A stretch of DNA of 64,000 nt from Nannocystis bainbridge (GCF_028368995.1 NZ_JAQNDL010000002.1:545724-609723); one strand, 5' to 3'; numbered from the stretch's first letter, positions 8,165-27,800 are shown. Notes: a model not told the origin generated them from the sequence alone. Numbers and translations are program-made.

Positions 8165-8230
8165 GGCTTCGCGGCGGCGACGGGTCGTGAGGCGAGGTAT
8201 CGGGGGCGCGTGCTCCGCTAGTTCGGCTCT

Positions 8231-8336
8231 TGACCCGATGTCGTGAGCAGGACCGCGGGCAGGCAGACTCCCGAGCACGGCTCATGACGCGATGTCGTGA
8301 GCAGGACCGCAGGCAGGCGGACTCTCGAGCACGGCC
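8231..8336 (+). repeat. tandem direct repeat, ~54 bp x2
   Basis: tgacccgatgtcgtgagcaggaccgcgggcaggcagactcccgagcacggc is followed by tgacgcgatgtcgtgagcaggaccgcaggcaggcggactctcgagcacggc. It lies between convergent genes. Confidence 0.8.
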
Positions 8337-8362
8337 CGCGACCTCTCGGATGGCCTGGCAGA

Positions 8363-9103
8363 TCAGGGGAACACGAGCTCGATCGCAGTCGTGCCCGGGA
8401 AATCGAGCATGGCCTCGGCGACCCGCCCCGTGCCGGACAGCGTGCCCGTGAGCTCGCACCAGCCGTCTTCGTTGGCCGCGCAGGAGCAGTCGCCGCACTC
8501 GATCAGGGTGTCGCTGGCGAACGCCTCGAGGCCCAGGAGCCCGGGCGCGACCTGCTGCTCCTCGAGGCAGGACGTGTTGTCGCAGAATTCGCCCGCGCAG
8601 GCGGCGGGGACCGCGAATTCGACGAAGTGATTGCCGGTCCACACGAGGTCGAATCGGCCGCCCGGCTCGAGCCGCACGACCTCGGCGGAGCCGCAGCCGT
8701 CGCTGCAGCCGCACGAGGACTGCATGCCGGCGCAGGTCTCACAGGCCAGGGCATCGACCCGCAAAAGCCCGGCGTCGGCCGCCGCGAGGACCACGAACGG
8801 ACGATTGCCGCAGCCGTCGTCGGGCTGGAAAAACAGCGGGGTCATGCCGCCGTTGCGCAGGGTGAGCGTGACCTCCGGTCCGGCGGGGAGCGTCGAGGCG
8901 CCGCACTCGGCCGGGGTGTCGGTGGTGCCCGCGGTGCTGGTGGGATCGGCGTCGGTCGTGGGCGTGCCGGTATCGCCGGAGGTCGAGGGACCGTCCGTCG
9001 CGGTGATGGAATCCGAGGCGCTCTCGGTCGCCTGCTCTTTTTCACCGCACGCCGCGAACACGAGCCCGAAGAAGGCTGCCAGTCTGTAAAGATCAAGCTT
9101 CAT
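8363..9103 (-). CDS. cysteine-rich secreted lipoprotein
   Basis: Signal MKLDLYRLAAFFGLVFAAC, a Ser/Thr/Asp-rich linker, and a Cys-rich C-terminal domain (CETCAGMQSSCGCSDGCGSAE). Confidence 0.75.
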   Translation of the reverse strand: MKLDLYRLAAFFGLVFAACGEKEQATESASDSITATDGPSTSGDTGTPTTDADPTSTAGTTDTPAECGASTLPAGPEVTLTLRNGGMTPLFFQPDDGCGNRPFVVLAAADAGLLRVDALACETCAGMQSSCGCSDGCGSAEVVRLEPGGRFDLVWTGNHFVEFAVPAACAGEFCDNTSCLEEQQVAPGLLGLEAFASDTLIECGDCSCAANEDGWCELTGTLSGTGRVAEAMLDFPGTTAIELVFP

Positions 9104-9240
9104 GGCGGCATGTTAGGCCGAAGGGACCGCGGTGACGAGCGGCGGGAGTTTCGGCGACGCGTCGGGTGCGGTCGACGGCGCGGAGCTGCAGCGCCTCTCG
9201 GCGGGTGCGGTAAGACGTCTGGCTGCGCCCGCGCCGGCTG

Positions 9241-10329
9241 TCAGAGCGGGACCAGGCAGTGGCCGAAATTTTCGAGGTCGGGCGGGGCCTCGCCGTCGGC
9301 GTAAGGGGAGAGGCACATCAGCTCGGGCGGGCAGGCGGGCTGGGATAGGTCGCAGTACGGGGTGCAGCAGGACGGGTCGGCGGGATTGCAGGTGGGGACG
9401 TATTCGGTGGAGACGCACAGGTGGCCGGGATCGCAGTCGTTCGTGGCGGAGCAGACCTCGGTGTAGGCGCCGCCGTCGCCCGAGATGTCTGGGACGCAGA
9501 CCGGGTCGAGGCCGACACAGACCTGTCCCATAGGACAGGCTGCGGGGCCGGCGAGCGGATCGCAGGTCGGCTCGCACAGGTGGATCTCGAGCTCGTCGTC
9601 GCCCCAGACCTGGCAATGGGTGGCCGGGTCGGCGCATTCGGGCGCGTCGGGGCTGCCGGTGCAGCGCGCGGTGCAGATGCCCTGCGCGGTGTCGGCGTCG
9701 ACGCGGCTGCACACGGCTCCCGGGGCGCAGTCGCCCCACGACCACGAGCCGTCGGAGGTGACGGTGCAGGGCTCGCCGACGGGGACGCCGGGGGCCGGGA
9801 CGGGCACGCACGACCACCGGTCGGCGAAGGGGTCGTCGTCGCGCGAGACCGGCAAGCAGGTGGTGCCCTCGGTGCGGCAGGCGTCGGGATCCCAGGGGTC
9901 GCAGCGGTTGTTCTGGGCGCAGAGCACGGCGTCGCCGAACTCGCAGGGATCGGCGTAGCCGCACTGATAGCCGCCGCAGATCTGGTGGACGCAGTCGAGG
10001 CTGCAGATGGTGTGGCGATCGCAGCCAGGAGGCAGCGGTACGCACTGGACCTCGGGATAGCCGACGCAGGCGTCGTCGGCCCCGACCCACTGGCAGAACT
10101 CGTCAGGGCCACACATGGCGCACGGATGTTCGGCGCCGCCGGTCGACGAATCGTCGGTGGTCGAGTCGTCGCTCGTGCCGGTCGTCGCGTCCGAGCTGCT
10201 GCTGGTGGAGACGGCCTGCGGCTCGGTGGTGTCCGCCGTGTCGCTCTCGGTGGCCGGGGCCTGGGAGCAGGCGACCAGAAGGAGGACCAGTGAGCTCGAT
10301 AACGCGCGGAGCAAAGACGGGCGGTCCAT
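9241..10329 (-). CDS. cysteine-rich repeat lipoprotein (CDPW..C / FEDVGxCxLP family paralog)
   Basis: Signal LVLLLVAC, an acidic S/T linker, many paired Cys, and a C-terminus ENFGHCLVPL resembling the genes at 24182 and 25129. Confidence 0.8.
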   Translation of the reverse strand: MDRPSLLRALSSSLVLLLVACSQAPATESDTADTTEPQAVSTSSSSDATTGTSDDSTTDDSSTGGAEHPCAMCGPDEFCQWVGADDACVGYPEVQCVPLPPGCDRHTICSLDCVHQICGGYQCGYADPCEFGDAVLCAQNNRCDPWDPDACRTEGTTCLPVSRDDDPFADRWSCVPVPAPGVPVGEPCTVTSDGSWSWGDCAPGAVCSRVDADTAQGICTARCTGSPDAPECADPATHCQVWGDDELEIHLCEPTCDPLAGPAACPMGQVCVGLDPVCVPDISGDGGAYTEVCSATNDCDPGHLCVSTEYVPTCNPADPSCCTPYCDLSQPACPPELMCLSPYADGEAPPDLENFGHCLVPL

Positions 10330-10729
10330 CTTTGTCAGTTTCGTTGGCTTTCAAGGCGAGCGCAACTATAAATTCTCGGCGCGGGTTCGCGCTAGCGGAA
10401 CAAGGATTCGCCAGGGGCCCGGCGCAAGAGCTGTCTCAAAGTTCAGGTGTGGTCGGCGGGCGTTCGGCTGGTTTACCTGTCCGAAGAGGCAGGTAATCCG
10501 GATGGTCGGGCTGAGGCTGTCCGAGCGTCGAGATCGTGAGCGGCACAGCCGGCATGACGCCCCGGCGGTTCCTGCTCGAGGCGGACGGGTCGAGCCGGGA
10601 CGACTGACGGCAGGTTTCACGCGCGTCGAGCCCGGTCGCGGGCATGCGACTGCCACTTCGAGTGGAAGGCTCGCTTGCTCGCCAAGCTCGCAACGGATAC
10701 CTTTCTCACTCCAGGTTCAGGACAAAGAG

Positions 10730-11062
10730 ATGTCGAGCTCGAATGTACTCACGTTCACGGAGCAGAATTTCGAGCAGGAGGTCGTCCAGGCGTCCTGGTT
10801 CGTGCCTGTGTTGGTGGTATTCACGGCGACCTGGGCCGGGCGCTGTAGCGAGCTCTTGCCGATCGTCGAGAAGATCGCGGACGACTACCAGGGCAAGGTC
10901 AAGGTGGGCATCCTGGACATCGACGGTGCCCCCGAGACCACTCAGAAGAACGGGGTCAAATCCGTCCCGACCTCCATCGCGTTCAGAGGCGGGAGCAAGG
11001 TGAGCATCGAGCCGGGCCTCACGAGCCGCGAAGTCCTGCTCAGCATGCTGAGCTTGGCATAG
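10730..11062 (+). CDS. thioredoxin-fold protein with degenerate active site (WAGRC instead of WCGPC)
   Basis: MSSSNVLTFTEQNFEQEVVQASWFVPVLVVFTATWAGRCSELLPIVEKIADDYQGKVKVGILDIDG...VPTSIAFRGG has thioredoxin topology. ATG at 10730 is preceded by a lower-GC leader. Confidence 0.7.
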   Translation: MSSSNVLTFTEQNFEQEVVQASWFVPVLVVFTATWAGRCSELLPIVEKIADDYQGKVKVGILDIDGAPETTQKNGVKSVPTSIAFRGGSKVSIEPGLTSREVLLSMLSLA

Positions 11063-11318
11063 CCAGGACGGCGGCGTTGTGGGGTAGTGGATCGATCCCG
11101 CCGCCAACGACGCTCGCCTCGAGCGTGGCTCGCAGCGTGACCGCCGAAGGAAAGGGCCCGCGAAAGCGATGAGCCGCATGGCTGACGAGCGCAGCCTGGG
11201 CATCCTGGACTTTCATCGATGCCCACCCGGGCATCGCTGTGCCATGCGAAGCGTGGTCCCGCCGTCTCTCGTGTACCTGCCTGAAGAGACAGGTGGTACT
11301 GCTGGGCTCACTGACCGA

Positions 11319-11336
11319 AGAGACAGGGCTCTGTCT
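11319..11336 (-). terminator. perfect hairpin GAGACAG-GGCT-CTGTCTC downstream of the minus-strand gene ending at 11391
   Basis: Seen in sequence. There is no U-tract, which is common in high-GC genomes. Confidence 0.25.
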
Positions 11337-11390
11337 CCCCGGCCGTGCGCGGCCGCCCGCGGCTCGAGGGGCGGCCCGCGAGGGCTCCGC

Positions 11391-12260
11391 TCAGACCGGG
11401 CAGCCGGGCTCGCCCATGTCGCAGCAGAGGCAGGCGGACGTGCCCATCTCTTCGCCGCAGAAGCCGTGGTCGTAGAGGGCCATCATGTCGTCGCCGACCT
11501 CGGTGCACTGGATGAAGCAGTCGAACTCGGCCAGCTTGCCGTAGATGCAGGTGTTGAGGTTGACCTCGTCGGCGCAGGAGGCCGGGTCGCTGTTCTCGCA
11601 GGCGGTGCCGGGGCCATCGCCGCAGATGAACTCGACCGACTTGCCGTTGTCGATGCAGCCGTAGGCGAAGTCGTAGCCGTCGAAGTTGCAGCTGTCCTTG
11701 GCGAGGTTGGGCTCGAGGACCCAGGTGTCGCCGTCGCAGCGGTAGATCTGGCTGCCCTCGGGGCCGCAGGCCTCGGTCATCGTGCACCAGAACTGGCCGT
11801 TTTTGCAGCTGTCGGGCGGCGGCTGCTCGCCGCGACACTCCTCGACGCCGGTGGTGGTGCTCTCGCTGGTGTCGCTGGTCTCGGTGGTGCTCGCCGTCTC
11901 GTCCGTGGTGCTCGTGGAGGAGGTGGCCGGGATCGTGGTCGAGTCGGTGTCGGTCGAGTCGGTGGTGGTGGTGGTCGGCTCGCTGGTCGAGGTCGGCTCG
12001 ACGGTGGTGGTGCCGACGCTCGGCGACGAGGTGGTGTCCGCGACGGGACAGCACGACAGGTCGTCGGGGTCGTCGGTGCAGTACTCGAAGCCGTCGTTGC
12101 AGTAGCAGTCCTCGCCGTCGAGGTACGCGTTGGGATCGTCGCACACGAACTGGCCGGTGTCGGAGTCGGTGCTGGTCGTGGTGTTGCCGCTCGTGAAGAC
12201 GCAGGCCGGCGAGAGCGCCAGGAGGGCCAGGAGGGCGATTTTGCGAGGTAAGCGAGCCAT
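11391..12260 (-). CDS. cysteine-rich secreted lipoprotein
   Basis: Signal LLALLALSPAC, a long T/S/D/E-rich linker, and a Cys-rich C-terminal domain. Confidence 0.75.
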   Translation of the reverse strand: MARLPRKIALLALLALSPACVFTSGNTTTSTDSDTGQFVCDDPNAYLDGEDCYCNDGFEYCTDDPDDLSCCPVADTTSSPSVGTTTVEPTSTSEPTTTTTDSTDTDSTTIPATSSTSTTDETASTTETSDTSESTTTGVEECRGEQPPPDSCKNGQFWCTMTEACGPEGSQIYRCDGDTWVLEPNLAKDSCNFDGYDFAYGCIDNGKSVEFICGDGPGTACENSDPASCADEVNLNTCIYGKLAEFDCFIQCTEVGDDMMALYDHGFCGEEMGTSACLCCDMGEPGCPV

Positions 12261-12292
12261 GGCGAAAAAAATGACACAACCCGCCGCGCGCG

Positions 12293-13504
12293 TCAGGGCA
12301 ATTTATCGCCCGTGTCGCACAGGAAGCGGAAGCTGTAGCCGCCAGGCGCGGGCAGGGCCTTGTAGCTCTTCACGCTGCCGTCCTGGTTCCACTGGTAGAG
12401 CATCGAGCAGCCCTCGCACGCGCCGAGCTCGTCGGGCTCGCCGCTGCCGACGGCGACGTCGCTGACGTACCAGGCCTCGTCGTCGCCGGCGCGCCACTCG
12501 GGACAGTCGAGCCCGTTGAGCGGCGCGTCGACGCAGCTCTGCCCCGCGGTGACCGGATAGATCCCCAGAATCTGCAAGTAGTCGGCGCCGCTCTTCACCG
12601 CCCCGCCGCCGACGGGTTCGAGGTCCTCGCCGGTGACGACCTGCCAGGCGGCTTCGAGGTGGGCCGGGCTGCGCGGGGTGAACAGCTGCATGCCCCACTC
12701 GTTGCAGGTGGTCTCGGCCTTGGTGGCGGTGGCGGGGCTGGGGTTCATGCCGGCGGCGACGTCGACCTTGAGGAAGGTGTAGCCGCCGCCGTCGGTGGCC
12801 TCGTCGAGGGCGCACCAGACCTGGATCGAGTCGGCGACGCCCTCGCGGCGCACGCTGAAGATGCCGCTGACGGCCGCGGGGTCGGCCTCCTGCCACTCGC
12901 GGCAGCTGTGGGCGTACTGGCACGAGGGCAGGCAGTCGGGGCCGTCCTCGCAGTCCTCGAGCTCGGGCTCGACCACGCCGTCGCCGCAGCCGGGGCCGGC
13001 GGCGCTGCAGTCGGCGAGGCAGCCGCCGTAGCTGCCGTCGTTGACGCCGTCGTCGCAGACCTCGCCGCCGTTGAGGACACCGTCGCCGCAGGCGGGGACG
13101 CGGCACTCGGTCGTGCAGGCGCCGTCGTCGGCGTTGTCGGGGCCGAGGTCGCACTCCTCGGCGGCCTTGTTGACGAGGCCGTCGCCGCAGGTGGCGTTGA
13201 GGCAGGCGGTGGTGCAGTCGCCGTCGTCGGCGTTGGCGGGCCCGAGGTCGCACTGCTCGCCGGGGTCGACGAAGCCGTCGCCGCAGGCGGGCCCGGCGGT
13301 GGTGGAGGTCGGGCCCGCGGTCGGGTCGTCAGTGGTGGAGCTGGTGGTCTGGGGCGGCGGCTGGGTGGTCCCGATGTCGGTCGTGCCGATGTCCGAGGTC
13401 GCGTTCGACTCGGTCTCGGTGTTGGCGTTGGGGTCGAGGCACGCAGGCAGGGCCGTGACGCTCAACAGGGGCAGCGAGATCCAGAGGCGCGACGCGATGG
13501 GCAT
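12293..13504 (-). CDS. lipoprotein with Cys-rich CGDG...ECD repeats and C-terminal fibrinogen-related-like domain
   Basis: Start MPIASRLWISLPLLSVTALPAC. Repeats ACGDGFVDPGEQCDLG...DCTTAC (x4). C-terminal VWCALDEATDGGGYTFLKVD resembles the FReD core C[DM]xxxxGGGWT. Confidence 0.7.
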   Translation of the reverse strand: MPIASRLWISLPLLSVTALPACLDPNANTETESNATSDIGTTDIGTTQPPPQTTSSTTDDPTAGPTSTTAGPACGDGFVDPGEQCDLGPANADDGDCTTACLNATCGDGLVNKAAEECDLGPDNADDGACTTECRVPACGDGVLNGGEVCDDGVNDGSYGGCLADCSAAGPGCGDGVVEPELEDCEDGPDCLPSCQYAHSCREWQEADPAAVSGIFSVRREGVADSIQVWCALDEATDGGGYTFLKVDVAAGMNPSPATATKAETTCNEWGMQLFTPRSPAHLEAAWQVVTGEDLEPVGGGAVKSGADYLQILGIYPVTAGQSCVDAPLNGLDCPEWRAGDDEAWYVSDVAVGSGEPDELGACEGCSMLYQWNQDGSVKSYKALPAPGGYSFRFLCDTGDKLP

Positions 13505-13724
13505 GGGCGCCAGGATTTGTCCACGATTCAGCCTGGGCCGCAAGAGGCGCCGGCGCGCGCGGGGGCGGCGAGCTGATTCAAAAGACAGGCCGCGGCGATG
13601 ACGTGGGGTGACTGCGACCGGGCCGGGGGTGGGTTCGGGCGAACTCGAAGTCGTGGGCTGCACATACGACGAGGCCGCGGGCCCTGGGGGGGCGCGCGGC
13701 CTCGTCGGCGGCCTCGGAGCCGCG

Positions 13725-19700: not shown

Positions 19701-22700
19701 GGCCTCGATCTGGCGCCCGAGGTCCTCGTCGTCGGGCCGCAGCTTGTAGGCGCGCTGCAGGTAGCCGATCGCGCGCGCGGGGTCGCCGAGGCGCTCGCGG
19801 GCGATCTCGGCGGCCGAGATCAGCAGGGTGATGGTGCCGAAGTCGCCGTAGTTGGGGGTCTTCTCCTGGAAGGCCAGCTCCTGCTCGCTGACGTCGAGCA
19901 TCTGCGGCCACAGGCCGTGGGCCTGGGCCAGACCCTCGAGGCGAGCTTGCACGGCGCCGGCGTCGAGGCCGGCGCGCAGGGCCACGAAGTAGGCCTTGCG
20001 GCCCCAGGCGAAGGCGAGGTCGGGGTCGCCGATCTTCTTCTCGGCGGTGGCGGAGGCGCCGAGGCACAGGTCGATCTGGCCGCGGCTCTCGGCGCGCGCG
20101 CTCATCTCGGTGAAGCGCTCGCCGTAGACGACGAGCAGGTCCTTGTACATGCCGTGGCGCTCGGCGAACGCCTCGATCTTGGTCTTGAGGTCGCGGCTGC
20201 CGGGGGCGATGCCGAGGGCCCGCCCGAGCAGCGCGAGCGCCCGCTTGGCGTGGCCGAGCCCGAACTCGCACACCTCGGCCATCTGCTCGAGGGTGACGAC
20301 CTGCTGGGCGGCGTCGGTGAGGCTCTCGAGCCGCTTGCCGAGAGTGTCGAGGGTGGCCTGGTGATCGCCGGCCAGCGCCTGCAGCTCGCCGAGGACCTTG
20401 AGGCCCTCGCCGTCGTCGGGCTCCTCGCGCATGAACCGCTGGAACGCGGCGGTGGCCTTGTGCGGGGCGCCGAGGTTGACGACGTAGGTGCGGGCGATCA
20501 GCGAGAACAGCTCGCGCCGCTCCTCGGTCTCGAGCGCCGACAGCAGCAGCACCTCGGCGTGGCGGATCAGGCGGTCGAACTGGCCGGCGCGCTCGTACAG
20601 CTCGAGCAGCTTGAGGGCGACGTCGCGGTTGCCGATGGCGGTGGTCGACGCGAGCTGCTCGAGCACGCGGATGGCGGCGGCCGGGTTGTCGAGCCGGTCG
20701 GCCAGCACCTCGGCGCGCTCCCAGCCGATGCCGAGCGCCTCCTCGTCGCTGTCGGCCATCTCCTGCAGGGTGCCGAGCGAGGCGGCCAGACCGTGCCAGC
20801 TGCCGAGGTTGCGGTAGAGGCGGGTCAGCGCCTCGGTCGCGCCGCGGTGGTCGCGGTGGATCCGGAGCGCGCGCTCGAAGGCCGAGCAGGCCAGGTCGGC
20901 GTCGCCGAGCGACGACTCGGCGACGTGGCCCAGGCGCATGAGGTAGTCGAGCTGGCGGATCGGCGGGGTGCGGGCCGAACTGGCGGCCTTGCCGAGCAAG
21001 TTGGCCAGCTCCTCGCGGTTGCCGAGCGCCTCGTAGGCGGCGATCAGCTTGTCGGTGACCTCGAGGTTGTGCGGGTCGCCGGCCTGCAGCTGCGTCCACG
21101 CCTGGGCCGAGCGCTGCGGGTCCTGCAGCTTGCGGTCGGCGACGTCGGCCATGCGGCGGATGATGCGGGTCCGCTGGGCCGGCTCGCCGACCAGGCCGAG
21201 CTCGCGCGACAGGGCTTCGTGCTCGCCGCCGGCGTCACCGAGCTCGGCCGACAGGCCCTGCATGCGGTGCACGGCGTCGATGTCGGAGGGGCTGTAGCCG
21301 AGGATCTGCTCGCAGGCCCACAGCGCTTCGCGCGGGCTGTGCAGCTCGTGCTGCCACAGCTCGGCCATGCGCCGCAGCAGGACCACGCGCTGCGAGATGC
21401 TGCGGGTGACGTCGTGCTGGCGCCGCAGCAGGTCGATGACCTGGTCGTAAGCACCTGTCCTCTCGTACATCTCGGCGAGCGCGCGCAGGGCCCCCTCGTG
21501 GCCGGGCGCGAGCGCCAGCATCTCCTGCAGCAGGACGATGGTGCGCTGCGGGTCGGTCATGCGCTCGCGGTGGGCCTGCGACAGCCGGCGCAGGACCTCG
21601 AAGCGGCGCTGCGGATCGACGGTGCGCTGCAGCTCGGCCTCGAGGGTGGCGAGGTTGGCGTCGAGCATGCGCGCGCGCTTGTCGATGCGCGCGATCTGGT
21701 CGCGCGGGCGCCAGTCGTTGGGGTAGGCGAGAGCGAGCCGGTTCCAGGCGTCGAGGGCCCCGGCGAGGTCGCCGAGGCGGCGCTCGTAGATCTCGGCGAG
21801 CTCGACGAAGTGCTCGGCGAACTCGCTGCGCGCCAGCGGGCTGTCGGCGCCGCCGCCCATCTGCAGCGCTTGATCGACCTGGTAGAGGATGAGGCCGGCC
21901 AGGTGCGACCAGTTGTTCTTGCGCCGCCAGTGCTCCTTGTAGCCCTCGAACGCCTCGTGGTTGAAGGGCTCGCGCTCGAGCACGCGGTAGAAGCTGACGG
22001 CGGCCCGCTCCTCGTCGCCGAGGTCCTCGCGGGCGACGCGGGCGGCCCACAGCAGCTTGTCGGTCGGCAGGCCGCCAGGGTCCTGCTCGGACCAGCGCTC
22101 GTAGAGGCCGACGAGGCCGTGGTTGTCGCCGAGCTCGACGAGCAGCGCCTCGAGCCGCAACCACGCGTCGCCGCCAGGCCGCTCGAGCCGCGAGGCCTGC
22201 TCGTAGCAGGCGCGCGCCTCTTCGCGACGGGCGAGGCGAGTCTCGAGCAGCTCGCCGCGCGAGAGCCACAGGCCGTAGCTGTCGGCCTCGGTGACGTAGC
22301 CGATCCACGCCCCGTAGAGGTCGTCGAGCTCCATCCACTTCTCCTGCGCCATCAGCAGCTCGGCCAGCGCGTTGCCGGCCTCGTGGTGATCGGGGCGCAG
22401 GCTCATGGCCCGACGCAGGAGGCTGTAGGCGATCTTTTCGTCGCCCTGGCTGCGCGCCAGCTTGGCGGCGCGGAAGAACACGTCGGCGGCCTTTTGCAGG
22501 CCCTCGTCGCTGGCCTTGCCGCTGCCGAGGTAGAGGGCGCCGAAGGCCCGCAGGGCGGCGACGTCGTCAGGGTTGGCCTTGAGCGCGGCCTGGAGGTGGA
22601 GGGCCGCGGAGGGGATGTTCTCGAGCTGCTCGGCCTCGATGCGGGCGAGCCGGAGATGGAGGGAGGCGAAGCGGTCGCGCTCGCGGACGCTGTCGGTGCG

Positions 22701-23372
22701 CGCGAGCTCGACGTTGATCAGATCGATGACGCGCAGCCAGGCGCCGGCCTGGAGATGGAGGCGAATGAGCTGGTCGCTGGCGTCGCGCTCGCCATGGTTG
22801 ATCTCGAGCGCGGCTCTGTAGCAAGCGATCGCCTCGTCGACCTGGCACCGCTGCTCGTCGACCTTGCCGAGCTCGACGAGCGCGCCCGGGACGGCGGCGC
22901 GATCGTGCCGCCGCAGATGATCGAGGCGAAACTTGAGGAGGGTGGCGAGCTCGTCGAGGCTGCCGAGCTCGCCGTAGACCTTGCGCAACTGCTCGTAGGC
23001 GCGGTTGTTGTGCGGCTCGGCCTGGAGGGCGCGCACGAGGGCGTAGGCGGCCTGGGCCTTGTCCTTGACGCGGTCGTTCCACAGCTCGAAGGCCTGGACA
23101 CAGAGCTCGGCGACCTTGGGCGGGCCAGTGATGGCGGCGGCGTGGACGACGAGCAGGGTGGCGAGGCCGCTCCAGTTCTCGGCCTCGCGGAAGGCCCGCC
23201 GCAGCTTCAAGAAGGCGTCGTCGCTGGGCTTGGCGCGAAACGCCGTCAGCTCGGGCGGCTCTCCAGGAGCCACCGGCGGCAACGGGCAAGGCAGATCGTG
23301 AGGCGAGGGCTGGCGCTTGGGCGCGACGGCAGTTTCGGGCATGGGCTTGGTGCCGCGAGCGGGGCCGCCCAA
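13725..23372 (-). CDS. giant tetratricopeptide-repeat (TPR) protein, 3215 aa, with central Pro-rich linker
   Basis: One uninterrupted ORF, Leu/Ala/Glu/Arg-rich, with dozens of TPR-like units (LADLYEQTGQPERAEEQYRGVLAVSP and similar) and a PRPAAKPRGPTPPRPPGGKPLAKAPPPTRRPAAPPPPSRPPEP segment. The + ORF 13608..23417 is its antisense shadow. Confidence 0.85.
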   Translation of the reverse strand: MGGPARGTKPMPETAVAPKRQPSPHDLPCPLPPVAPGEPPELTAFRAKPSDDAFLKLRRAFREAENWSGLATLLVVHAAAITGPPKVAELCVQAFELWNDRVKDKAQAAYALVRALQAEPHNNRAYEQLRKVYGELGSLDELATLLKFRLDHLRRHDRAAVPGALVELGKVDEQRCQVDEAIACYRAALEINHGERDASDQLIRLHLQAGAWLRVIDLINVELARTDSVRERDRFASLHLRLARIEAEQLENIPSAALHLQAALKANPDDVAALRAFGALYLGSGKASDEGLQKAADVFFRAAKLARSQGDEKIAYSLLRRAMSLRPDHHEAGNALAELLMAQEKWMELDDLYGAWIGYVTEADSYGLWLSRGELLETRLARREEARACYEQASRLERPGGDAWLRLEALLVELGDNHGLVGLYERWSEQDPGGLPTDKLLWAARVAREDLGDEERAAVSFYRVLEREPFNHEAFEGYKEHWRRKNNWSHLAGLILYQVDQALQMGGGADSPLARSEFAEHFVELAEIYERRLGDLAGALDAWNRLALAYPNDWRPRDQIARIDKRARMLDANLATLEAELQRTVDPQRRFEVLRRLSQAHRERMTDPQRTIVLLQEMLALAPGHEGALRALAEMYERTGAYDQVIDLLRRQHDVTRSISQRVVLLRRMAELWQHELHSPREALWACEQILGYSPSDIDAVHRMQGLSAELGDAGGEHEALSRELGLVGEPAQRTRIIRRMADVADRKLQDPQRSAQAWTQLQAGDPHNLEVTDKLIAAYEALGNREELANLLGKAASSARTPPIRQLDYLMRLGHVAESSLGDADLACSAFERALRIHRDHRGATEALTRLYRNLGSWHGLAASLGTLQEMADSDEEALGIGWERAEVLADRLDNPAAAIRVLEQLASTTAIGNRDVALKLLELYERAGQFDRLIRHAEVLLLSALETEERRELFSLIARTYVVNLGAPHKATAAFQRFMREEPDDGEGLKVLGELQALAGDHQATLDTLGKRLESLTDAAQQVVTLEQMAEVCEFGLGHAKRALALLGRALGIAPGSRDLKTKIEAFAERHGMYKDLLVVYGERFTEMSARAESRGQIDLCLGASATAEKKIGDPDLAFAWGRKAYFVALRAGLDAGAVQARLEGLAQAHGLWPQMLDVSEQELAFQEKTPNYGDFGTITLLISAAEIARERLGDPARAIGYLQRAYKLRPDDEDLGRQIEALGEQHQMWQALVDLQEAKLARARTGLGRFDACAAIAKIYERHLHDPKRAFQWLRRAETDLRPADPSLAEEAAGLMTELAQRHQLWPELADHHRGLALAKLQRNERGGLNQLKDSARIDYEKRQDPLASLRTLRLGVAYDRDGTALMPAIEAMAAKVDENKSPDTPPTGALTLLSVTQQIIGQTVDPALKLQLLKRRAELRAGLGDTAGAIAEWLRALALHPGHEEARFELDRLAERDNLWHLLLLAPASELHFGTGKAQQGKLLTQIAELYENCLGRPEYALRARIAAWKLQGDLPPETGELGPAHAKMWHLAGLTGTYTSPPQARDPLLWPQIAPPELADRDQWRKLGLDPDTLAPRMAVKARKKEESSVMELDDLEELSRPTAEIQLSELEPLEELRRGGGKEVVARPGKTFRSETHTNIVDLADLEPVELSATAIKVRAPRPSRGETDIVDIAELEPLEASGSVSVRAAGLPRQESGVFDLADFEPIEDSLVGPAPKRPSAEVSGVLDLDEMLELDDDAPRPVSHKRSLPRPAAKPRGPTPPRPPGGKPLAKAPPPTRRPAAPPPPSRPPEPVPAASLPPPPPVASRELIDAVTAGLPALPELEAPVVPVRPAASSAWHELAHAYASVVPASKSERAGLQRLLARLWDEGAGRPDAALERYEEALALVPDDAAALTGLVHMAERTADPERLIAALSRLLSDLTLPEHIVAYHSRLADLYEQTGQPERAEEQYRGVLAVSPKHLGALRSLAALHAKTGREREAAEASARLYDVEADGLPLAERIPRVLQLARDLAYRADRSLEAIRRLEALVKETPETADVHAELIEILQREGLWVRAVEALRTAAEVVPNPDARVRCLARAATLTEERLGQLDAAIAGWSEVLDHNPGDPDALARLQSLYLRSEQYAKLLPILDRRLAQVGPGDRDARIALLVVKARALQEGQGDETAALETLETLAAEAPENDDVVLGLSRLYRKGGRMDDGIEMLRRRLAEIVSDMEVRNEPLAEEPLPFDIPEPVSPALAARRVRIAEALATALAEEAGDPRGALETLDEALADAPPEAALGLQQRRVALARALGDDRALTVSLAAVGEPDGILEAAAIARDRLHEPELAAQLFTRVLAELAPGAPQRSRRLSQAIEGLVGLRLAAGDLDGADALLDAQLAQIDDPEIRARILTESGRALLRGGQEFARARQRFEAALAADPDHAPARLALGAALIDAGLHAEAEATLEAAVEAFGLTRDQPRLVEGLLMLARLFEQTDRANEAYRRLSMALRHVPDDLEIRAGMAHNRAAAGRYRDAVAALEPVEQRLAAGTPVAPERASVVADLLILAAECDAKQNAPTDRLAARYARALELAPRHRKARAALAQLAQESGRLVDAADHTLALADLEQDPEARGRALLAAGMLFHEAAGAAAESGEETVVSASAQKILGAAFEAVQAGLALIQHIPHPVLDRRQLEAAFWTAVTRNAGIALGCLDRLLHHPDLRDAKRVGFLLEGVKIALQRGEPGDPARALAYARAAAPLLPDAAAPIHGLVDALRATGAVDEIEPAVRAYLARESVQKPPGDPREARDRQRLLVRLADLVVQAEPSPDPKDSRPAQAIRLLERAAELDPTGLGLAPRRQLAKLYADEKIQGPQVRTNSDALLHLDPLDEASLAALARHCAEAGEEHRAHAIHQLLRIVSPGHAEAGAFLTSHELLSVRGGKLDPATVVEPAPADAGVVPAMTALWEGAAELLAEELPRPQFNEAAWIEAETDKDTLLWKVWTELGTQMAAQGVRLADVGLLPEMHVEGGWTSVSCVHSPVILVGPAARAETTAPRLRFALGRALFFTRPAAILVAGLPRPLFAGVLAAALQAFHPRHTRRVRTRDEADLATRLGQTLARKLPIRLARQLSGQFKEREQEGFDSRDWRAWVQRSGDRVGLCLSRNLGAALDILGLPQEPGERSAALKARAAHDADLRDLLVFAVSPAYVGARRALGFEVKSR

Positions 23373-23819
23373 AATACCACGGCCGCGCAGGCGTGTGGTT
23401 TGCGGGCGGACAGGTGACCGTGAACAGCGCGGGGCGCAGGCGGCGCTCGGAGAGGTCGGTGATGGGGGCGGGGAGCCTCAAGGCCGGGGCGGTTCCGCGC
23501 GAGGAGGGTCGCGGTTGTGGCTTCGCGAATTGCCGGCGGCGCCTCGCTGGGGGTCCGGGGAAGGATCGTCGTCGAGTTCAGCGGCTGGATGGGCGTTCGT
23601 GCCTCACGCCCATCCCGCCTCGTATTCGACGTCGACCCTTCCCCGGACCCCCGGCACGGCTGCAGCCGTGAGAGGCCCGCGCGCCGGTCCCGGCTCCGCT
23701 GGCGATCTCGGAGGGGCGGGGGCCGGAGGGCGGCTGTTCGACGGCCAGGGCTGGCCGCCGAACAGCCGCCATCTGGGAGTCCTCGCCGCGGCGTGCGTTC
23801 GCCGGCGGGGAGACGATCG

Positions 23820-23960
23820 CGGGGAATGTGGAGAGTTGAAGGCGGCGGCGGAACAGGCGGGCCTTGAATGTGAGTAGGGGGTGAACGTGAGGGGCGGCGA
23901 ATGGGGAGGTTGAGAATGTTGGTAGTCGTTCACGGTGGCTGTAGTGATTCGCTGTTTGCC
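23820..23960 (+). other. purine-rich, lower-GC element with repeated GAATGTGAG-like motifs in an 800-bp divergent intergenic region
   Basis: ggggaatgtggagagttgaagg ... gaatgtgagtagggggtgaacgtgagg ... gaatggggaggttgagaatgttgg, with strand-asymmetric G/A content. Confidence 0.5.
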
Positions 23961-24181
23961 GGAGAGAATATTGGCGTGGGTCGCGGGGCGGTGCGTGGTG
24001 TGCAGCGCGTCCGCGGGCGCGGATGTCCGAGCGGTGCGCGAACGGGGCGTGGTGATTTGTTTCGTGCGAAGCAGCGAGCGCGGCGTGAGGGGGCGGCTCG
24101 CGGTCGGTCGTCGAGGAGCGAGCTTCGGGGTCCGCAGGCCAATGATTCCCGAACGTGCCGGACAAGAACGGCGCGACGATC

Positions 24182-25060
24182 ATGCAGCGATATATTCTGT
24201 GGTTCTCTGTGATGTCCGGCGCGCTGGTCGCCGGCTGCTCCGAAGCTTCGAACTCCGCGACGGAGGCGGCGCCGTCGACGACGGATGATGCGACGAGCAC
24301 AGGCGCGCCGACGACGGCGGGCCCGACGGGCGAGTCCACCGAGACGGGCGCGGCGCCGACCAGCAGCGGCGGCGAGGAGCTCGGGCAGTGCGATCCGTGG
24401 CTGCAGGACTGCCCGGAGGGGCACAAGTGCATGGCGTTCGCGCCGGAGGGCGAGGGGGCGTTCACGGGCACGAAGTGCACGCCGGTGGCGGCGAACCCGG
24501 GCTCGCTCGGAGATCCATGCAAGGTCGAGGACGGCTGGTGGAGCGGGGTCGATGATTGTGATCACGGGCTCGCGTGCTGGGACGTCGACCCGGCCGACAA
24601 CTCGGGGCAGTGCGTGGCGCTGTGCCGGGGTAGCGAGGACGATCACGGCTGTCCCGGGTCGGACGATGTATGCGTGTTTTGGGTCCCGGGGGTGGCGCAC
24701 GTGTGTCTGCAAGGCTGCGACCCGCTGCTGCAAGATTGCGCGGAGGGGCAGGGCTGCTTGCCGAACTGGGCCAATGGCGGCCAGGATTTCGTGTGCCAGG
24801 CGGAGTATTCAGCGGAGGAGGGCCAGGTGTTCGACCCCTGCGAATTCACCAACGCGTGCGATCCGGGGCTGCTGTGCTGGGGGCCGGGCAGCGCCCTGGA
24901 ATGTGAACAGGATGCGATCGGGTGCTGCCTGCCGTTCTGCGACTTGAAAGATCCGCAGTGCACGGGCGAGGGGGCGGTGTGCACGTCGTTTTACGAGGCG
25001 GCGGGCAGCGAGCCGTTGCCGCAGTTCGAGGATGTGGGGATCTGCGTGCTGCCGGGCTGA
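24182..25060 (+). CDS. cysteine-rich repeat lipoprotein (CDPW family)
   Basis: MQRYILWFSVMSGALVAGC, then QCDPWLQDCPEGHKC, ending FEDVGICVLPG. Confidence 0.8.
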   Translation: MQRYILWFSVMSGALVAGCSEASNSATEAAPSTTDDATSTGAPTTAGPTGESTETGAAPTSSGGEELGQCDPWLQDCPEGHKCMAFAPEGEGAFTGTKCTPVAANPGSLGDPCKVEDGWWSGVDDCDHGLACWDVDPADNSGQCVALCRGSEDDHGCPGSDDVCVFWVPGVAHVCLQGCDPLLQDCAEGQGCLPNWANGGQDFVCQAEYSAEEGQVFDPCEFTNACDPGLLCWGPGSALECEQDAIGCCLPFCDLKDPQCTGEGAVCTSFYEAAGSEPLPQFEDVGICVLPG

Positions 25061-25128
25061 GGTCCCGACTGTGGAAGGGCGAACTTGCGCGGCGGAACAG
25101 CCTCGCTGTTTTGTGGTATTTCGTCGTC

Positions 25129-26109
25129 ATGGCCTCGCCGTCTCGCCGCCGAATCGTGTGGTTCTCTCTCGCCTTCGCCTGCGCTTGCGGCCCCAAACCG
25201 GCTGCCGAGACGACCGACGCCACTGACTCGGCGAGCACTGCCGAGCCGGGGAGCACCACCGGCGATACCACGGTCGTCGAGACCACCTCGACGACCGGCG
25301 GTACTTCGACGACCGCCGGCTCCACCGCGCCGAACCCTACCACCGCGAGTCCCACCACGAGCGACAGCGGCGATTCGACCGGCGCCACCGGTACTCCCTT
25401 CATCACGCCTCCCGACCTCGGCGGCGGAGGCTGTCCCAGAGCCGCCGCCAGCTCCTGCGACCCATGGACGCAGAATTGCCCCTCTGACGACAAGTGCGCG
25501 CCTTCGGGGGGCGGCTGCGGCGTCTTCACCAGAACAGTCTGCCACGAGCTGCCCGACCAGCCGGTGCCGCTCGGCGGCATCTGCGAATCGGAGGGTCATC
25601 CGCTGAGCGGCCGCAATGATTGCGAGCTCGGCACCACCTGCTGGTTCATCGATCCCGAGACCTTGATCGGCACCTGCGTCAGCCTGTGCCACGGTTCCCC
25701 CGTGGCCCCCGATTGCTCGCATGTCCCCGGCACCGCCTGCGTGCTCGTCCACGACGGCCTCGACGCCCCGCTGTGCCTGCCGACCTGCGACCCCTTCGCG
25801 CTGACCTGTCCCGAAGGACATCACTGCCACCCGAGCGCGCTCACCCCCGCGCTGTTCGCCTGCACCCCCGACGCCTCGCTCGGCGCCGCCTTCGAGGCGT
25901 GCGACAAGGCCGATTGCGCCGCCGGCCTGCTGTGCAGCGAGTCGGAGGCGGCCGCCGTCGAGTGCGCCCCCGACACGAACTGCTGCACCCCGCTGTGCGA
26001 CCTCGATACCCCCGATTGCCCCGGCGTCGGCCAGGTCTGCCTGCCGTACTACGAGATGGGCCAGGCGCCCGCCGGGCTCGAGGACGTCGGACGCTGCGGC
26101 CTGCCGTGA
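25129..26109 (+). CDS. cysteine-rich repeat lipoprotein (CDPW family paralog)
   Basis: MASPSRRRIVWFSLAFACACG, then SCDPWTQNCPSDDKC, ending LEDVGRCGLP. It lies 68 bp after the previous paralog, so the two are probably an operon. Confidence 0.8.
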   Translation: MASPSRRRIVWFSLAFACACGPKPAAETTDATDSASTAEPGSTTGDTTVVETTSTTGGTSTTAGSTAPNPTTASPTTSDSGDSTGATGTPFITPPDLGGGGCPRAAASSCDPWTQNCPSDDKCAPSGGGCGVFTRTVCHELPDQPVPLGGICESEGHPLSGRNDCELGTTCWFIDPETLIGTCVSLCHGSPVAPDCSHVPGTACVLVHDGLDAPLCLPTCDPFALTCPEGHHCHPSALTPALFACTPDASLGAAFEACDKADCAAGLLCSESEAAAVECAPDTNCCTPLCDLDTPDCPGVGQVCLPYYEMGQAPAGLEDVGRCGLP

Positions 26110-26139
26110 TTCGACCAGGGGGATGAGGGGCGGAATGCA

Positions 26140-26215
26140 GTCCGTGTTGCGAGGCGGCGAGCAGCGAGCCGTCGCCGCAGTTCGAGGATGTGGGGAGCTG
26201 CGTGCTGCCGGGCTG
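26140..26215 (+). pseudogene. duplicated 3'-end fragment of the Cys-rich lipoprotein gene (copy of ~24990-25060)
   Basis: gcgagcagcgagccgtcgccgcagttcgaggatgtggggagctgcgtgctgccgggctgagg matches the last ~70 nt of gene 24182..25060 with about 5 mismatches. There is no upstream ORF body. Confidence 0.7.
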
Positions 26216-26432
26216 AGGCTTAAAAAGCGGAGCCAGGGCGCGCCGTCGACCGCAGGCGTGCCGGGGCGGCTCGATGGACGCGGGCGGGGAGACCTGGGAA
26301 GATGCCGGGGAGCGTGTCTCTTCAGGCGGTCATCCTTCGACGATCTGCGGCCTCTCGGGCGCTGCCCTGGCCGGTCGGGAGGTCGGCCGAAGCGAAGAGC
26401 TTGGACGGTGCCGGGCATCGAGAGGTGATCCG

Positions 26433-26996
26433 ATGAGAGCTGCGATGGCGATCCTGGGGATATGCGTGCAGGCCCTGCTGGCGTGCGACAAGGGCGACGG
26501 CAAGACCACGGACACGGCGAGCTCGGCGAGCTCGACGAGCACCACCGGCGACGACGGCCCGACCAGCGGCGGGACCACCGAGGCGAGCGCGAGCTCGACC
26601 GAGGCGGGTTCGAGCACCAGCGGCCCGATGGCCTGCGAGTTGGTCGTCGGGCCGTCGGACGAGTTCGAGGTCGAGGATCCCGACGGGTGCTTCGCAGCGG
26701 CGGACGAGGCGGGCTGTCTCGCTGTCGAGAGCCAGTGCACGGCCCTCTACGGGGTGCCGATGACGTGCACGGACGACACGTGGTGCGCGCCCGATGGCGC
26801 GGCCTCCGTGTATCTCGGGTGCCGCCCGTTCACGATATGCAAGCTGAACGCGAAGGCGGTCTGCCGGAAGGGCCCGAGCGGGGTCGAGGGCTTCTGGACG
26901 ATGACCTGCACCCCCGAGGGCTTCGGTCTCTGCGCCCCGAACCTGCAGGAGACGGAGGCCAGCGCCCCACCCGACGCCCCGCCCACGTGTGAATGA
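26433..26996 (+). CDS. cysteine-rich secreted lipoprotein
   Basis: MRAAMAILGICVQALLAC lipobox, an S/T-rich linker, and a Cys-rich domain. Confidence 0.7.
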   Translation: MRAAMAILGICVQALLACDKGDGKTTDTASSASSTSTTGDDGPTSGGTTEASASSTEAGSSTSGPMACELVVGPSDEFEVEDPDGCFAAADEAGCLAVESQCTALYGVPMTCTDDTWCAPDGAASVYLGCRPFTICKLNAKAVCRKGPSGVEGFWTMTCTPEGFGLCAPNLQETEASAPPDAPPTCE

Positions 26997-27041
26997 ACGA
27001 TGCCGGCGCGGCAGCCTTCGTGCCGCGCAGGCGCGAGAGGT

Positions 27042-27800
27042 TCAGAAGCGGCCGGTGAGGCTGACGAGGGCGCCGCGCGGGGTGGGGTTCATGCCGGCGG
27101 AGAAGCGACGGGCGCGGTCGTTGCGGTGGAGCAGGGGGATGAGGGTGCCGATGGCGGTGCCGGCGAGGGAGCCGAACAGGACGTCGGTCCAGAAGTGTTT
27201 GCCGGCCTCGACGCGCAGGACGGCGGTGGCGGCGGCGAGGCCCATCGCGCCCAGCCACAGGGGGACGGCGGCGCGGGCCCGCGGGTGGCGCAGAGTGAAG
27301 ATGGTGGCCCAGGCGCTCATCATGGCGAAGGCGGTCGAGGTGTGACCTGAATAAAAGGACAGGCGGGCCTCCTCGGCGTTGACGTCGCCGAGCTCGCTCT
27401 CGGGCTCGTAGCTGTAGGGCCGCGGGCGCCGGACGGCGAGCTTGACGAGGTTGTTGAGGCCGACGTTGACGGTGAGGACCTCGAACAGGACGACGACGTC
27501 GCGGGCCCAACCGGCCGCGGCGTGCCGGTAGGAGCCGGGGGCGCGCCGGCCGGTGACGAGGGTGTCGGCGAGGTCGGCGAGCACGGGGATGGCGATGGCG
27601 CCGTAGAGGAGGGCGTCGGAGGCGTGGGCGGCGGCGAGGTTCTGATTGCCGAGGACGCGCCGGTCGAGGGCGTTGATGTGGCTGCGATCGCAGGCGCTGC
27701 AGCCGGGCCAGCGCATGTCGCGAGCGGCGAGATCGATGCCGATGGCGGTGACGAGGCCGAGGGTGATGACGGGGACGTCGACGGCGGGCCGCAGGCGCAT
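27042..27800 (-). CDS. PAP2-family phosphatase (phosphatidic acid phosphatase type 2)
   Basis: Motifs KLAVRRPRPY (KxxxxxxRP), SFYSGHTS (PSGH) and RVEAGKHFWTDV (SRxxxxxHxxxD). Start taken at MRLRPAVDV. An alternative upstream start (28178) adds a signal-peptide-like MPRRLLSALLVVLTASPAAA plus a linker that is the translation of the hairpin repeats. Confidence 0.75.
   Translation of the reverse strand: MRLRPAVDVPVITLGLVTAIGIDLAARDMRWPGCSACDRSHINALDRRVLGNQNLAAAHASDALLYGAIAIPVLADLADTLVTGRRAPGSYRHAAAGWARDVVVLFEVLTVNVGLNNLVKLAVRRPRPYSYEPESELGDVNAEEARLSFYSGHTSTAFAMMSAWATIFTLRHPRARAAVPLWLGAMGLAAATAVLRVEAGKHFWTDVLFGSLAGTAIGTLIPLLHRNDRARRFSAGMNPTPRGALVSLTGRF

Follow-up and report, generated by a model that had tools for sequence, protein, structure and literature searches.

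Three ancient paralogs among seven cysteine-rich lipoprotein genes of Nannocystis bainbridge, and the remnant of a gene end in a variable slot

Within a 64-kb window of the Nannocystis bainbridge genome (the whole stretch of DNA analyzed here), seven genes encode Cys-rich products behind a lipoprotein leader, and a second copy of the end of one of them, g5, lies beyond its neighbor g6. Did the seven arise from one another by local expansion, and is the extra gene end the footprint of a recent unequal homologous recombination between g5 and g6, as a preliminary description had proposed?

Layout and relationships of the seven genes

All seven open reading frames that had been proposed exist (Table 1), and their GC3 values of 0.86 to 0.97 are typical of coding sequence (genome GC, 72%). 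For g1 to g4 they are identical to the NCBI gene calls, and for g5 the NCBI start is a GTG at 24155, 27 nt upstream of the start used here, giving 301 aa. The common layout was also borne out: every product begins with a signal peptide and a lipobox Cys, and a Ser/Thr-rich linker and a Cys-rich part come next, with a Ser/Thr/Asp/Gly-rich stretch and 14 to 39 Cys after the leader. The PROSITE pattern PS51257 (a hydrophobic leader and the lipobox [LIVMFWSTAG](2)-[LIVMFYSTAGCQ]-[AGS]-C within about the first 35 residues) fits five of the seven (g1, g2, g5, g6 and g7), and g3 (SPAC) and g4 (LPAC) miss it solely through a Pro at -2. The products of all seven genes are predicted to be lipidated. A scan of the whole window found this layout in no other gene, the remaining lipobox candidates having 1 to 11 Cys and no Ser/Thr linker. 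The local concentration of Cys-rich lipoprotein genes is supported.

Table 1. Features of the window and their coordinates
Feature	Coordinates	Strand	Description
g1	8363-9103	-	246-aa predicted lipoprotein; lipobox FAAC, 47-aa Ser/Thr linker, 15 Cys
g2	9241-10329	-	362-aa g5-type family member; lipobox LVAC, linker
g3	11391-12260	-	289-aa putative lipoprotein (SPAC); Thr/Ser linker divides two Cys-rich parts
g4	12293-13504	-	403-aa putative lipoprotein; 3 TIGR02232/DUF4215 cysteine-rich acidic repeats, C-terminal fibrinogen-like GGGWT region
Giant TPR gene	13725-23372	-	Conserved
Hypervariable slot	23820-27027		Bounded by the giant TPR gene and the PAP2 gene, both conserved
g5	24182-25060	+	292-aa g5-type family member
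g6	25129-26109	+	326-aa g5-type family member
Remnant	26127-26218	+	Non-coding second copy of the final 29 codons of g5, its stop (26214-26216) and 2 nt
g7	26433-26996	+	187-aa predicted lipoprotein (LLAC); linker, 12-Cys domain
PAP2 gene	27042-28403	-	Conserved

The preliminary description had taken all seven for paralogs. An all-against-all BLASTP comparison was significant only among g2, g5 and g6 (E values of 1e-23 to 2e-36; g2 versus g5, 1.4e-23; g2 versus g6, 2.8e-23), which supports three true paralogs, with 35 to 39% amino acid identity; the one further match, between g1 and g5, fell in low-complexity leader and linker sequence. A CDPWxxxC start and an (F/L)E(D/N)(V/F)GxCxLP end, which had been noticed in three of the genes, are common to exactly these three. 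The profile of their family, called g5-type here, was aligned to the others with hhalign; it matched g1, g3 and g7 in the signal peptide and nowhere else, and its match to the g4 repeat region was weak (probability, 13%). g1 had no match in Pfam, NCBIfam or PDB searches, g3 matched nothing and is unrelated to the other six genes by BLASTP and the family profile, and g7 belongs to a small family of 12 homologs, found in Nannocystis only, that is unrelated to g5. The proposed check for the TIGR02232 repeat was positive for g4 (34.3 bits for TIGR02232 and 37.3 bits for DUF4215, over 3 repeats; curated cut-offs, 20.8 bits for TIGR02232 and 27 bits for PF13948) and gave no match at E <= 1 for g1, g2, g3, g5, g6 or g7. 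g4 also contains a 99-nt repeat at 13052 to 13291, and its match to the fibrinogen-like YCDxxxxGGGW domain (NF040941) reached 29.4 bits (E value = 5.8e-7; cut-off, 30 bits).

As judged by sequence comparison, the seven genes belong to at least five unrelated families and appear to have only the leader, the lipobox and the Ser/Thr-rich tether in common. Other Nannocystis species carry the same architecture on lipoproteins that are unrelated to these; a leader, a Ser/Thr tether and "many Cys" make up a generic Nannocystis lipoprotein architecture and are not grounds for paralogy.

A deeper kinship, in which all seven Cys-rich domains would belong to one ancient disulfide-rich superfamily beyond the reach of sequence methods, we consider improbable. 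All seven are extracytoplasmic, disulfide-rich and built of small modules, the g5-type protein P0229 carries 7 DUF4215 repeats downstream of its family domain, and the weak hhalign match to the g4 repeats points the same way. The Cys spacing patterns, however, are unlike one another, the profile matches to g1, g3 and g7 end with the signal peptide, and the AlphaFold2 model of g7, made with its 12 homologs, has a pLDDT of 40.5 and gives no structural support. A PDB sequence search with the family profile and with the C-terminal parts of g1, g3 and g4 returned nothing below an E value of 0.18.

The two-repeat domain of g2, g5 and g6

About 3,160 clusters at 50% identity make up the g5-type family, which occurs in Nannocystis and in Myxococcales MAGs and has neither a Pfam model nor a PDB relative. 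Its domain consists of a ~110-residue module that has been duplicated internally (repeat A versus repeat B, hhalign, 97.6%, E value = 4e-12), with 24 invariant Cys, and up to 26. The family is marked by CDPxxQDC at the module starts and by a C-terminal ExVGxCxLP, and both motifs are present in g2, g5 and g6. In g5 repeat A spans about 24389 to 24715 and repeat B about 24716 to 25057; in g2 an extra 12-Cys module (aa 69 to 140) precedes the two-repeat domain (aa 141 to 361). An AlphaFold2 model of the domain (pLDDT, 95) is all-beta and disulfide-rich, with a single 5-residue helix.

The N. bainbridge entry at NCBI with 100% identity to g5 is named "ribulose phosphate epimerase," and many g5 homologs bear the same name. 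Ribulose-phosphate 3-epimerase (PF00834) is a TIM barrel with a (beta/alpha)8 fold. The g5-type domain has no Pfam or NCBIfam epimerase match at E <= 1, and its model is all-beta, not a TIM barrel. The name is wrong for this family, and it propagates across the family's clusters; our alignment, together with the high-confidence model, would be enough to define the domain family and to correct the annotation. Literature searches on Nannocystis cysteine-rich lipoproteins and on "ribulose phosphate epimerase" in Nannocystis found nothing on the g5-type family, and for N. bainbridge itself they turned up its species description and an ecology preprint, nothing more.

We compared the family with known disulfide-rich proteins. 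The nearest comparison is with the TIGR02232/DUF4215 proteins, of which g4 is a bona fide member, and the resemblance lies in being myxobacterial, secreted or lipid-anchored, disulfide-rich and acidic. In contrast to them, g2, g5 and g6 lack the HMM match, and their unit is a module of ~110 residues and 12 to 14 Cys with a CDPxxQDC start, where that of TIGR02232/DUF4215 is a ~33-residue CGDGxxxxxExCDDGN repeat. The only PDB matches to the g5-type model were small binding modules rich in disulfides, namely knottin toxins, Dickkopf/colipase-type domains, Draxin and TNFR-type cysteine-rich domains, with which it appears to share beta-hairpin sub-modules pinned by several disulfides.

Members of the family also occur as fusions, to PT-HINT, to Receptor-L and, in P0229, to the DUF4215 repeats. 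In the homolog P0211 the PT-HINT domain lies immediately N-terminal to the family domain, and P0211 has no small same-strand gene downstream. A polymorphic toxin has an N-terminal trafficking part, a pre-toxin (PT-HINT) domain, a C-terminal toxin and a neighboring immunity gene; a HINT domain is absent from g2, g5 and g6, which do not fit that plan.

The gene-end remnant and the slot that holds it

The duplicated gene end that had been reported is real, and it is longer than the copy of about 70 nt at 26140 to 26215 first given: positions 26127 to 26218 match 24971 to 25062 with 89% identity across 92 nt. The copy is a direct repeat derived from g5, lies 1,156 nt downstream and was also found by tblastn (E value = 2.9e-6). 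It begins 17 nt past the g6 stop, not 30 nt. Its placement outside any intact reading frame was confirmed, with an in-frame TGA at 26124 to 26126; the overlapping 101-codon frame is not an annotated protein, is missing from the protein collection and has a flat GC content by codon position (0.72/0.69/0.71). An extension of the copy upstream into the g6 end (26095 to 26126 versus 24923 to 24970, about 60 to 70% identity with a 16-nt gap; CCLP versus CGLP) was indistinguishable from chance and was discarded.

The remnant retains QFEDVGxCVLPG and the stop at its end and is nearer to g5 than to the relatives from N. pusilla or N. punicea. When the 10 differences between remnant and g5 were polarized against those relatives, 7 fell on the remnant and 2 on g5, with 1 unpolarized; the changed codons were non-synonymous in 8 of 8 cases, F->C, Y->C and I->S among them. 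By this pattern of substitution, the remnant is a decaying pseudogene fragment. That the 92 nt were instead retained for a function, as a small peptide, a terminator or a regulatory RNA, is extremely improbable. Identity to g5 reaches 95% over its last 62 nt, and the first 30 nt hold 7 of the 10 differences, as retention might predict, but the in-frame stop lies directly upstream, the sole in-frame start-type codon (a GTG) leaves 8 codons, and both the non-synonymous changes and their excess on the remnant side speak against it. Furthermore, the RNA folds no better than shuffled sequences (z = -0.34; g5 end, +0.09), and neither a terminator-like site nor an Rfam match was found at the remnant.

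Could homologous recombination between g5 and g6 have produced it? Judged by their divergence, g2, g5 and g6 are ancient paralogs, with a nucleotide identity of 52 to 55% and a saturated third-position identity of 44 to 53%. Several observations would suit the model of the preliminary description, with seven paralogs by local expansion and a recent unequal crossover: the leader, linker and Cys-rich layout is common to all seven, g5 adjoins g6 and both are homologous, the g5-type family forms tandem arrays elsewhere (contig L019), and the remnant is a direct repeat derived from g5. We nonetheless regard this model as very unlikely. g1, g3, g4 and g7 show no detectable homology, and a homologous unequal crossover between g5 and g6 is itself unlikely because these ancient paralogs are 55% identical in nucleotides and nowhere match for more than 11 nt in a row, which is not enough for homologous recombination. 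Both genes are intact, each with its own family-type end; a complete gene plus an extra gene end is not the product of a crossover, which would give a chimera. Neither a junction in high identity nor a chimeric or copy-changed gene was found.

Comparison across the genus likewise goes against a recent local expansion. g3 and g4 are syntenic across Nannocystis, g4 having a syntenic ortholog in 4 other genomes and the g3 N terminus being kept beside g4. Species-level orthologs of g6 and g7 occupy different, conserved surroundings in other Nannocystis species, those of g6 in a UDG/FIST/STAS ... IgGFc_binding context that includes a 739-aa gene (dS, 0.32 to 0.40, matching the species-level dS of 0.26 to 0.36) and those of g7 beside an aminotransferase and a Redoxin-VKOR operon (dS, 0.34 to 0.37). 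For g5, no species-level ortholog was seen among the loci compared; its best homologs, L001 and L002, were rejected as orthologs at a dS of 0.82 to 0.89, far above species level.

The slot carries another set of secreted-protein genes in each Nannocystis species sampled, and the arrangement g5-g6-remnant-g7 occurs in N. bainbridge only. Since g6 and g7 have orthologs in other conserved neighborhoods, they appear to have reached the slot within the N. bainbridge lineage, either by relocating or as duplicates whose originals were later lost. That they moved, and are not extra copies, is inferred from searches that returned no second close N. bainbridge protein. Homology between g6 and its orthologs extends from about 25108 to about 26115 only (about -21 to +6 of the gene), and the AT-rich upstream element of the orthologs is absent from the window. 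A mobile element or integron found no support as the explanation of the slot: no integrase or transposase was found among its neighbors, no repeats bound it beyond short ones at chance level and no attC-like core was seen by eye.

A non-homologous rearrangement in this hypervariable slot fits the remnant better. The remnant would be a duplicate of the g5 3' end that is linked to the arrival of the tight, gene-only g6 segment: a second g5-like copy lost most of its length by deletion, or the insertion itself duplicated the g5 end. The g5-g6-remnant-g7 arrangement reflects ordinary turnover, in which surface-protein genes are born, die and relocate; nothing here overturns current understanding.

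A proposed role for the tethered domain

A g5-type protein would be processed by signal peptidase II and lipidated at its lipobox Cys, and a disordered Ser/Thr/Asp/Gly tether of 50 to 80 residues would carry a compact, non-catalytic, disulfide-locked domain made of two homologous ~110-residue all-beta modules. Held outside the cytoplasm, this domain may serve in binding or recognition, as a displayed module whose Cys scaffold is invariant and whose loops change fast, a combination typical of binding scaffolds. An extracytoplasmic, modular use is suggested because the domain occurs fused to PT-HINT, Receptor-L and DUF4215 repeats; from this architecture we infer a binding or display role. Fast evolution of the proteins is suggested by the NG86 dN/dS of g6 (0.37 to 0.45, versus 0.08 to 0.10 for the neighboring giant gene) and by the values inside the tandem array of at least 7 family genes with 30-nt spacers on the metagenome contig L019 (0.54 to 1.12). 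These ratios are probably inflated because synonymous sites are constrained at a genome GC3 near 0.9.

Borrelia Vsp/Vlp and Mycoplasma Vsp/Vsa are tandemly arrayed, variable surface lipoprotein families. By analogy, the g5-type family resembles them in having many copies of a lipoprotein gene in which the leader is conserved and the mature domains diverge, and in its tandem arrays (L019), pseudogene fragments and fast non-synonymous change. It has no sequence or fold relation to these families, however. Its three copies in the window (g2, g5 and g6) are old and for the most part lie apart from one another, and neither programmed switching nor silent cassettes nor phase-variable repeats were in evidence here.

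Taken as a whole, the explanation that we favor, and hold to be probable, combines several lipoprotein families, the ancient paralogs g2, g5 and g6, a variable slot, a remnant of non-homologous origin and a tethered binding domain. A g5-type domain that acts as a released effector or toxin-like payload for predation or competition, similar to a knottin or a Dickkopf ligand and not an anchored binding module, is unlikely. More speculatively, and with considerable doubt, the two-repeat 24- to 26-Cys domain of g2, g5 and g6 may be an undescribed extracellular fold family (about 3,000 clusters) that Nannocystis-type myxobacteria diversified through tandem arrays and variable slots. The module would be displayed or released and would act in recognition or as an effector, perhaps in prey or kin interaction, and in some members HINT would free it like a toxin payload. 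The slot itself is a natural example of how large genomes shuffle surface-protein genes without recognizable mobile elements.

Layout and relatedness of the seven lipoprotein genes

All seven open reading frames that the preliminary description had read as an expansion of Cys-rich secreted lipoprotein paralogs were present (see the table), with third-position GC (GC3) of 0.86 to 0.97, the range expected for genuine genes in a window whose GC content is 66 to 78%. The ends of g1 to g4 in the NCBI annotation were exactly the same, while g5, whose product is 100% identical to an N. bainbridge protein entry, was annotated from a GTG at 24155, 27 nt further upstream. Their common layout was borne out as well: a hydrophobic leader with a lipobox Cys is followed by a Ser/Thr-rich stretch and then by cysteines. 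The leaders of g1, g2, g5, g6, and g7 satisfied PROSITE PS51257, and those of g3 (SPAC) and g4 (LPAC) failed it due solely to a Pro at position -2. The linkers span 19 to 81 residues rich in Ser, Thr, Asp, Gly, and Pro, and each protein has 14 to 39 Cys in total. A lipobox-ORF scan of all 64 kb returned several further candidates, none with a Ser/Thr linker and none with more than 11 Cys. The local concentration is thus genuine, because the full layout occurs seven times in 8.3 to 27.0 kb and nowhere in the rest of the window.

Positions of the lipoprotein genes and neighboring features in the window
Feature	Position	Strand	Remark
g1	8363-9103	-	
g2	9241-10329	-	additional 12-Cys module N-terminal to family domain
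Thioredoxin-fold gene	10715-11062	+	between g2 and g3; WAGRC replaces canonical WCGPC active site; single Cys
g3	11391-12260	-	
g4	12293-13504	-	
Giant TPR gene	13725-23372	-	3,215 residues, TPR-rich
87-nt tandem repeat	18227-18443		inside giant TPR gene
Inverted repeats	23541-23660, 23723-23776		two, both strong, upstream of giant gene; 35-nt arms, 86% complementarity; 26-nt near-perfect palindrome
Slot	23820-27027		giant-gene start to PAP2 gene
g5	24182-25060	+	internal repeat detectable in DNA at 24389 and 24716
Terminator-like hairpin, T-rich tail	25089-25114		in 68-nt g5-g6 spacer
g6	25129-26109	+	
Remnant of g5 3' end	26127-26218	+	matches 24971-25062
ORF overlapping remnant	26123-26428		GC by codon position 0.72/0.69/0.71
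g7	26433-26996	+	
PAP2 gene	27042-28403	-	
CATGTCCYC array	7024-7205		13-nt unit, x14
CATGTCCYC array	27905-28055		54-nt units
CATGTCCYC array	40667-40797		21-nt unit, x6
Further CATGTCCYC sites	44922-45055, 57416-57966, 58555-58623		

Paralogy held for g2, g5, and g6 only. In an all-against-all BLASTP, pairs of these three were 35 to 39% identical over ~230 to 270 residues (E value = 1e-23 to 2e-36), and the motifs reported as shared among three genes do hold up. The single BLASTP match outside the trio, g1 to g5, was confined to the low-complexity leader and linker, and tblastn of g1 to g7 against the window gave cross-matches limited to g2, g5, g6, and the remnant. When we used hhalign with a profile of the g2/g5/g6 family (alignment A1, 81 sequences), the signal peptide alone aligned with g1, g3, and g7, and g4 matched at 13% probability. 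The suggested TIGR02232 repeat was found in g4 (34.3 bits, three repeats) and in none of the remaining six genes; g4 also matched Pfam DUF4215 (37.3 bits), and its fibrinogen-like GGGWT region scored 29.4 bits against a cutoff of 30 bits. g7 belongs to a family of 12 members, seen in Nannocystis only, with its own 12-Cys pattern, and g1 and g3 had no match among Pfam, NCBIfam, or PDB entries. On these comparisons, the seven genes represent at least five unrelated families, alike only in having a lipoprotein leader with a tether. Very different proteins in the equivalent slot of other Nannocystis genomes carry this layout too, for example, a ferritin-like protein and one combining a TIGR02232-type CGDG...CEDGN repeat with a C-terminal domain of no assigned family. 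It is a habit across the genus and no evidence of common descent.

The g2/g5/g6 family and its predicted fold

A word-indexed search found 537 homologs of the g2/g5/g6 family in Nannocystis spp. and in Myxococcales or "Deltaproteobacteria" MAGs. No homolog had a Pfam domain, and NCBI names many of them "ribulose phosphate epimerase." An exhaustive profile search covering 1.84 billion representatives retrieved 3,161 clusters at an E value of ≤1e-3 and 1,566 at ≤1e-30, most members having 290 to 350 residues. At least five members lie on this N. bainbridge contig (g2, g5, g6, P0060, and P0159). In A1, 24 Cys are invariant and 2 more are nearly so, and Asp, Gly, and Pro are conserved near CDPxxQDCPxGxKC, CDxG..CW, GCCxPxCDL, and the C-terminal ExVGxCxLP. 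The domain of the g5 family is an internal duplication, its first ~110 residues aligning with its second ~115 (hhalign probability 97.6%, E value = 4e-12). AlphaFold2 with the family alignment predicted a structure made almost entirely of beta-hairpins (pLDDT 95.3, pTM 0.87), and this two-repeat model is a confident and novel-looking prediction. Given that model and the lack of a Pfam domain, the epimerase name is a misnomer.

The gene-end remnant and the variable slot

The duplicated gene end was confirmed (92 nt, 89% identity). It comprises the final 29 g5 codons with their stop (26214-26216) plus two more bases, where the 3' similarity ends. With an in-frame TGA at 26124-26126, it lies outside any intact ORF; the sole ORF overlapping it is in a different frame and is absent from a 15-billion-protein collection. 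Nothing in its RNA folding (z = -0.34) pointed to a functional element in the remnant, and neither did a terminator scan or Rfam. The remnant resembles g5 more closely than it does the N. pusilla or N. punicea g5-like genes. When polarized by these two species, the 10 differences between remnant and g5 fell to the remnant (7), to g5 (2), or to neither (1 undecided). Amino acids are changed in all eight altered codons, family-conserved positions included (F->C, Y->C, I->S), a pattern that marks the fragment as decaying. Change on the remnant branch is ~8%, versus ~13 to 18% for synonymous sites on each branch separating N. bainbridge from other Nannocystis species (dS 0.26 to 0.36); the duplication is therefore younger than speciation yet not very recent, with a wide error from 92 nt.

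The fragment had been taken as a footprint of recent unequal recombination between tandem paralogs within the seven-gene expansion. It stands as a duplication footprint but not as a piece of a seven-gene expansion. Nor is a recent homologous origin upheld: g2, g5, and g6 are old paralogs with 52 to 55% nucleotide identity in the domain (44 to 53% at third positions), and a homologous crossover between g5 and g6 is implausible because these two have no identical run longer than 11 nt and each gene is complete. Such a crossover would yield a chimera instead of an additional gene end. The best g5 relatives, L001 and L002, are out-paralogs, given their dS of 0.82 to 0.89.

Both downstream genes have orthologs in other contexts. 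Those of g6 in N. exedens and N. punicea, at species-level dS (0.32 to 0.40), occupy a conserved order of UDG-FIST-STAS, a 739-aa gene, g6, and IgGFc_binding. The ortholog in one N. pusilla strain (L016, 5410-6422) is a frameshifted pseudogene split over three reading frames, and the annotated P0143 (186 aa) is a mere piece of it. Homology of these loci to the window is limited to ~25108-26115 (~-21 to +6 of the gene), and the window lacks the AT-rich element that precedes the orthologs. The hairpin in the g5-g6 spacer overlaps a short leader, TTTTGTGGTATTTCG, conserved upstream of g6 orthologs. In three species, g7 orthologs (dS 0.34 to 0.37) have an aminotransferase gene on one side and, on the other, a Redoxin-hypothetical-VKOR operon for disulfide-forming machinery. 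They stand tail to tail with this operon in L003, L004, and L005 (~10000-13400), a link lost in N. bainbridge. Since the searches run found no second close N. bainbridge copy of either gene, we infer that g6 and g7 entered the slot within the N. bainbridge lineage, either by moving or by being copied with loss of the original. The 92 nt from g5 that lie just beyond the tight g6 segment would have been left by this nonhomologous rearrangement.

A synteny comparison anchored on the giant TPR gene found it conserved, together with g3, g4, and the PAP2 gene, in N. punicea, N. radixulma, N. pusilla, N. exedens, and strain RBIL2. The slot (~5000-9900 in L006 to L011) holds differing sets of secreted or lipoprotein genes in six Nannocystis genomes; other species have a TIGR02232-type repeat lipoprotein, a ferritin-like lipoprotein, a beta-lactamase-like protein, or a protein with four Cys repeats, and no homologs of g5, g6, or g7 lie within the slot intervals compared. 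In N. pusilla (L010, ~7700-8531), the slot is taken up by a secreted protein composed of four ~45-residue Cys-rich repeats (CxCPGGKDYLGNTV..CGHQVCGEDFxYYVCGQxGWV). We found no integrase, transposase, or bounding repeats at the slot, and no mobile-element genes were visible in those of L006 to L011. The giant gene is 92 to 94% identical in DNA across Nannocystis species, and the inverted-repeat region upstream of it is kept in some species only. Compared with L007 and L011, g4 is syntenic across the genus, with a dN/dS of 0.77 to 0.93 (C-terminal domain alone, 0.64) next to about 0.09 for the adjacent giant gene.

Clues to the function of the family

The family domain is in every case preceded by a lipoprotein or secretion leader, and longer homologs pair it with further extracellular modules: seven DUF4215 repeats (P0229), a Receptor-L domain (P0294), other Cys-rich repeats (P0267), or a PT-HINT/Hint self-cleaving domain (P0211). 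In P0211, a fusion type that occurs in two metagenomes, the HINT domain is placed exactly between tether and family domain. On a JGI metagenome contig with 72.5% GC (L019, 7001-13681), at least seven g5-family lipoprotein genes stand head to tail with conserved 30-nt spacers, 54 to 73% pairwise identity, and 26 to 27 Cys per protein. Genes for an ECF sigma factor and a Ser/Thr kinase lie upstream of this array. Nonsynonymous change in the family appears fast: dN/dS (NG86, probably inflated throughout by GC3 constraint) was 0.54 to 1.12 in this array and 0.37 to 0.45 between g6 and its orthologs, versus 0.08 to 0.10 for the giant TPR gene in the same genomes. No conserved operon partner was found at any locus examined.

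The motif CATGTCCYC occurs 29 times in the window against 0.9 expected, mostly in tandem arrays, and the L019 spacers likewise start with CCATGTCC. This motif is perhaps an interspersed repeat particular to the genus, or else a binding site.

The clues to function are all indirect. They would best fit a noncatalytic module for binding or recognition, attached to a lipid anchor by a tether, locked by disulfides, and variable in its loops. The main alternative is that the domain acts as a released effector. The most useful by-product of the analysis is the g2/g5/g6 family itself, which is misnamed and has neither a Pfam model nor a PDB relative. Overall, the locus shows the ordinary gain, loss, and movement of genes for surface proteins.
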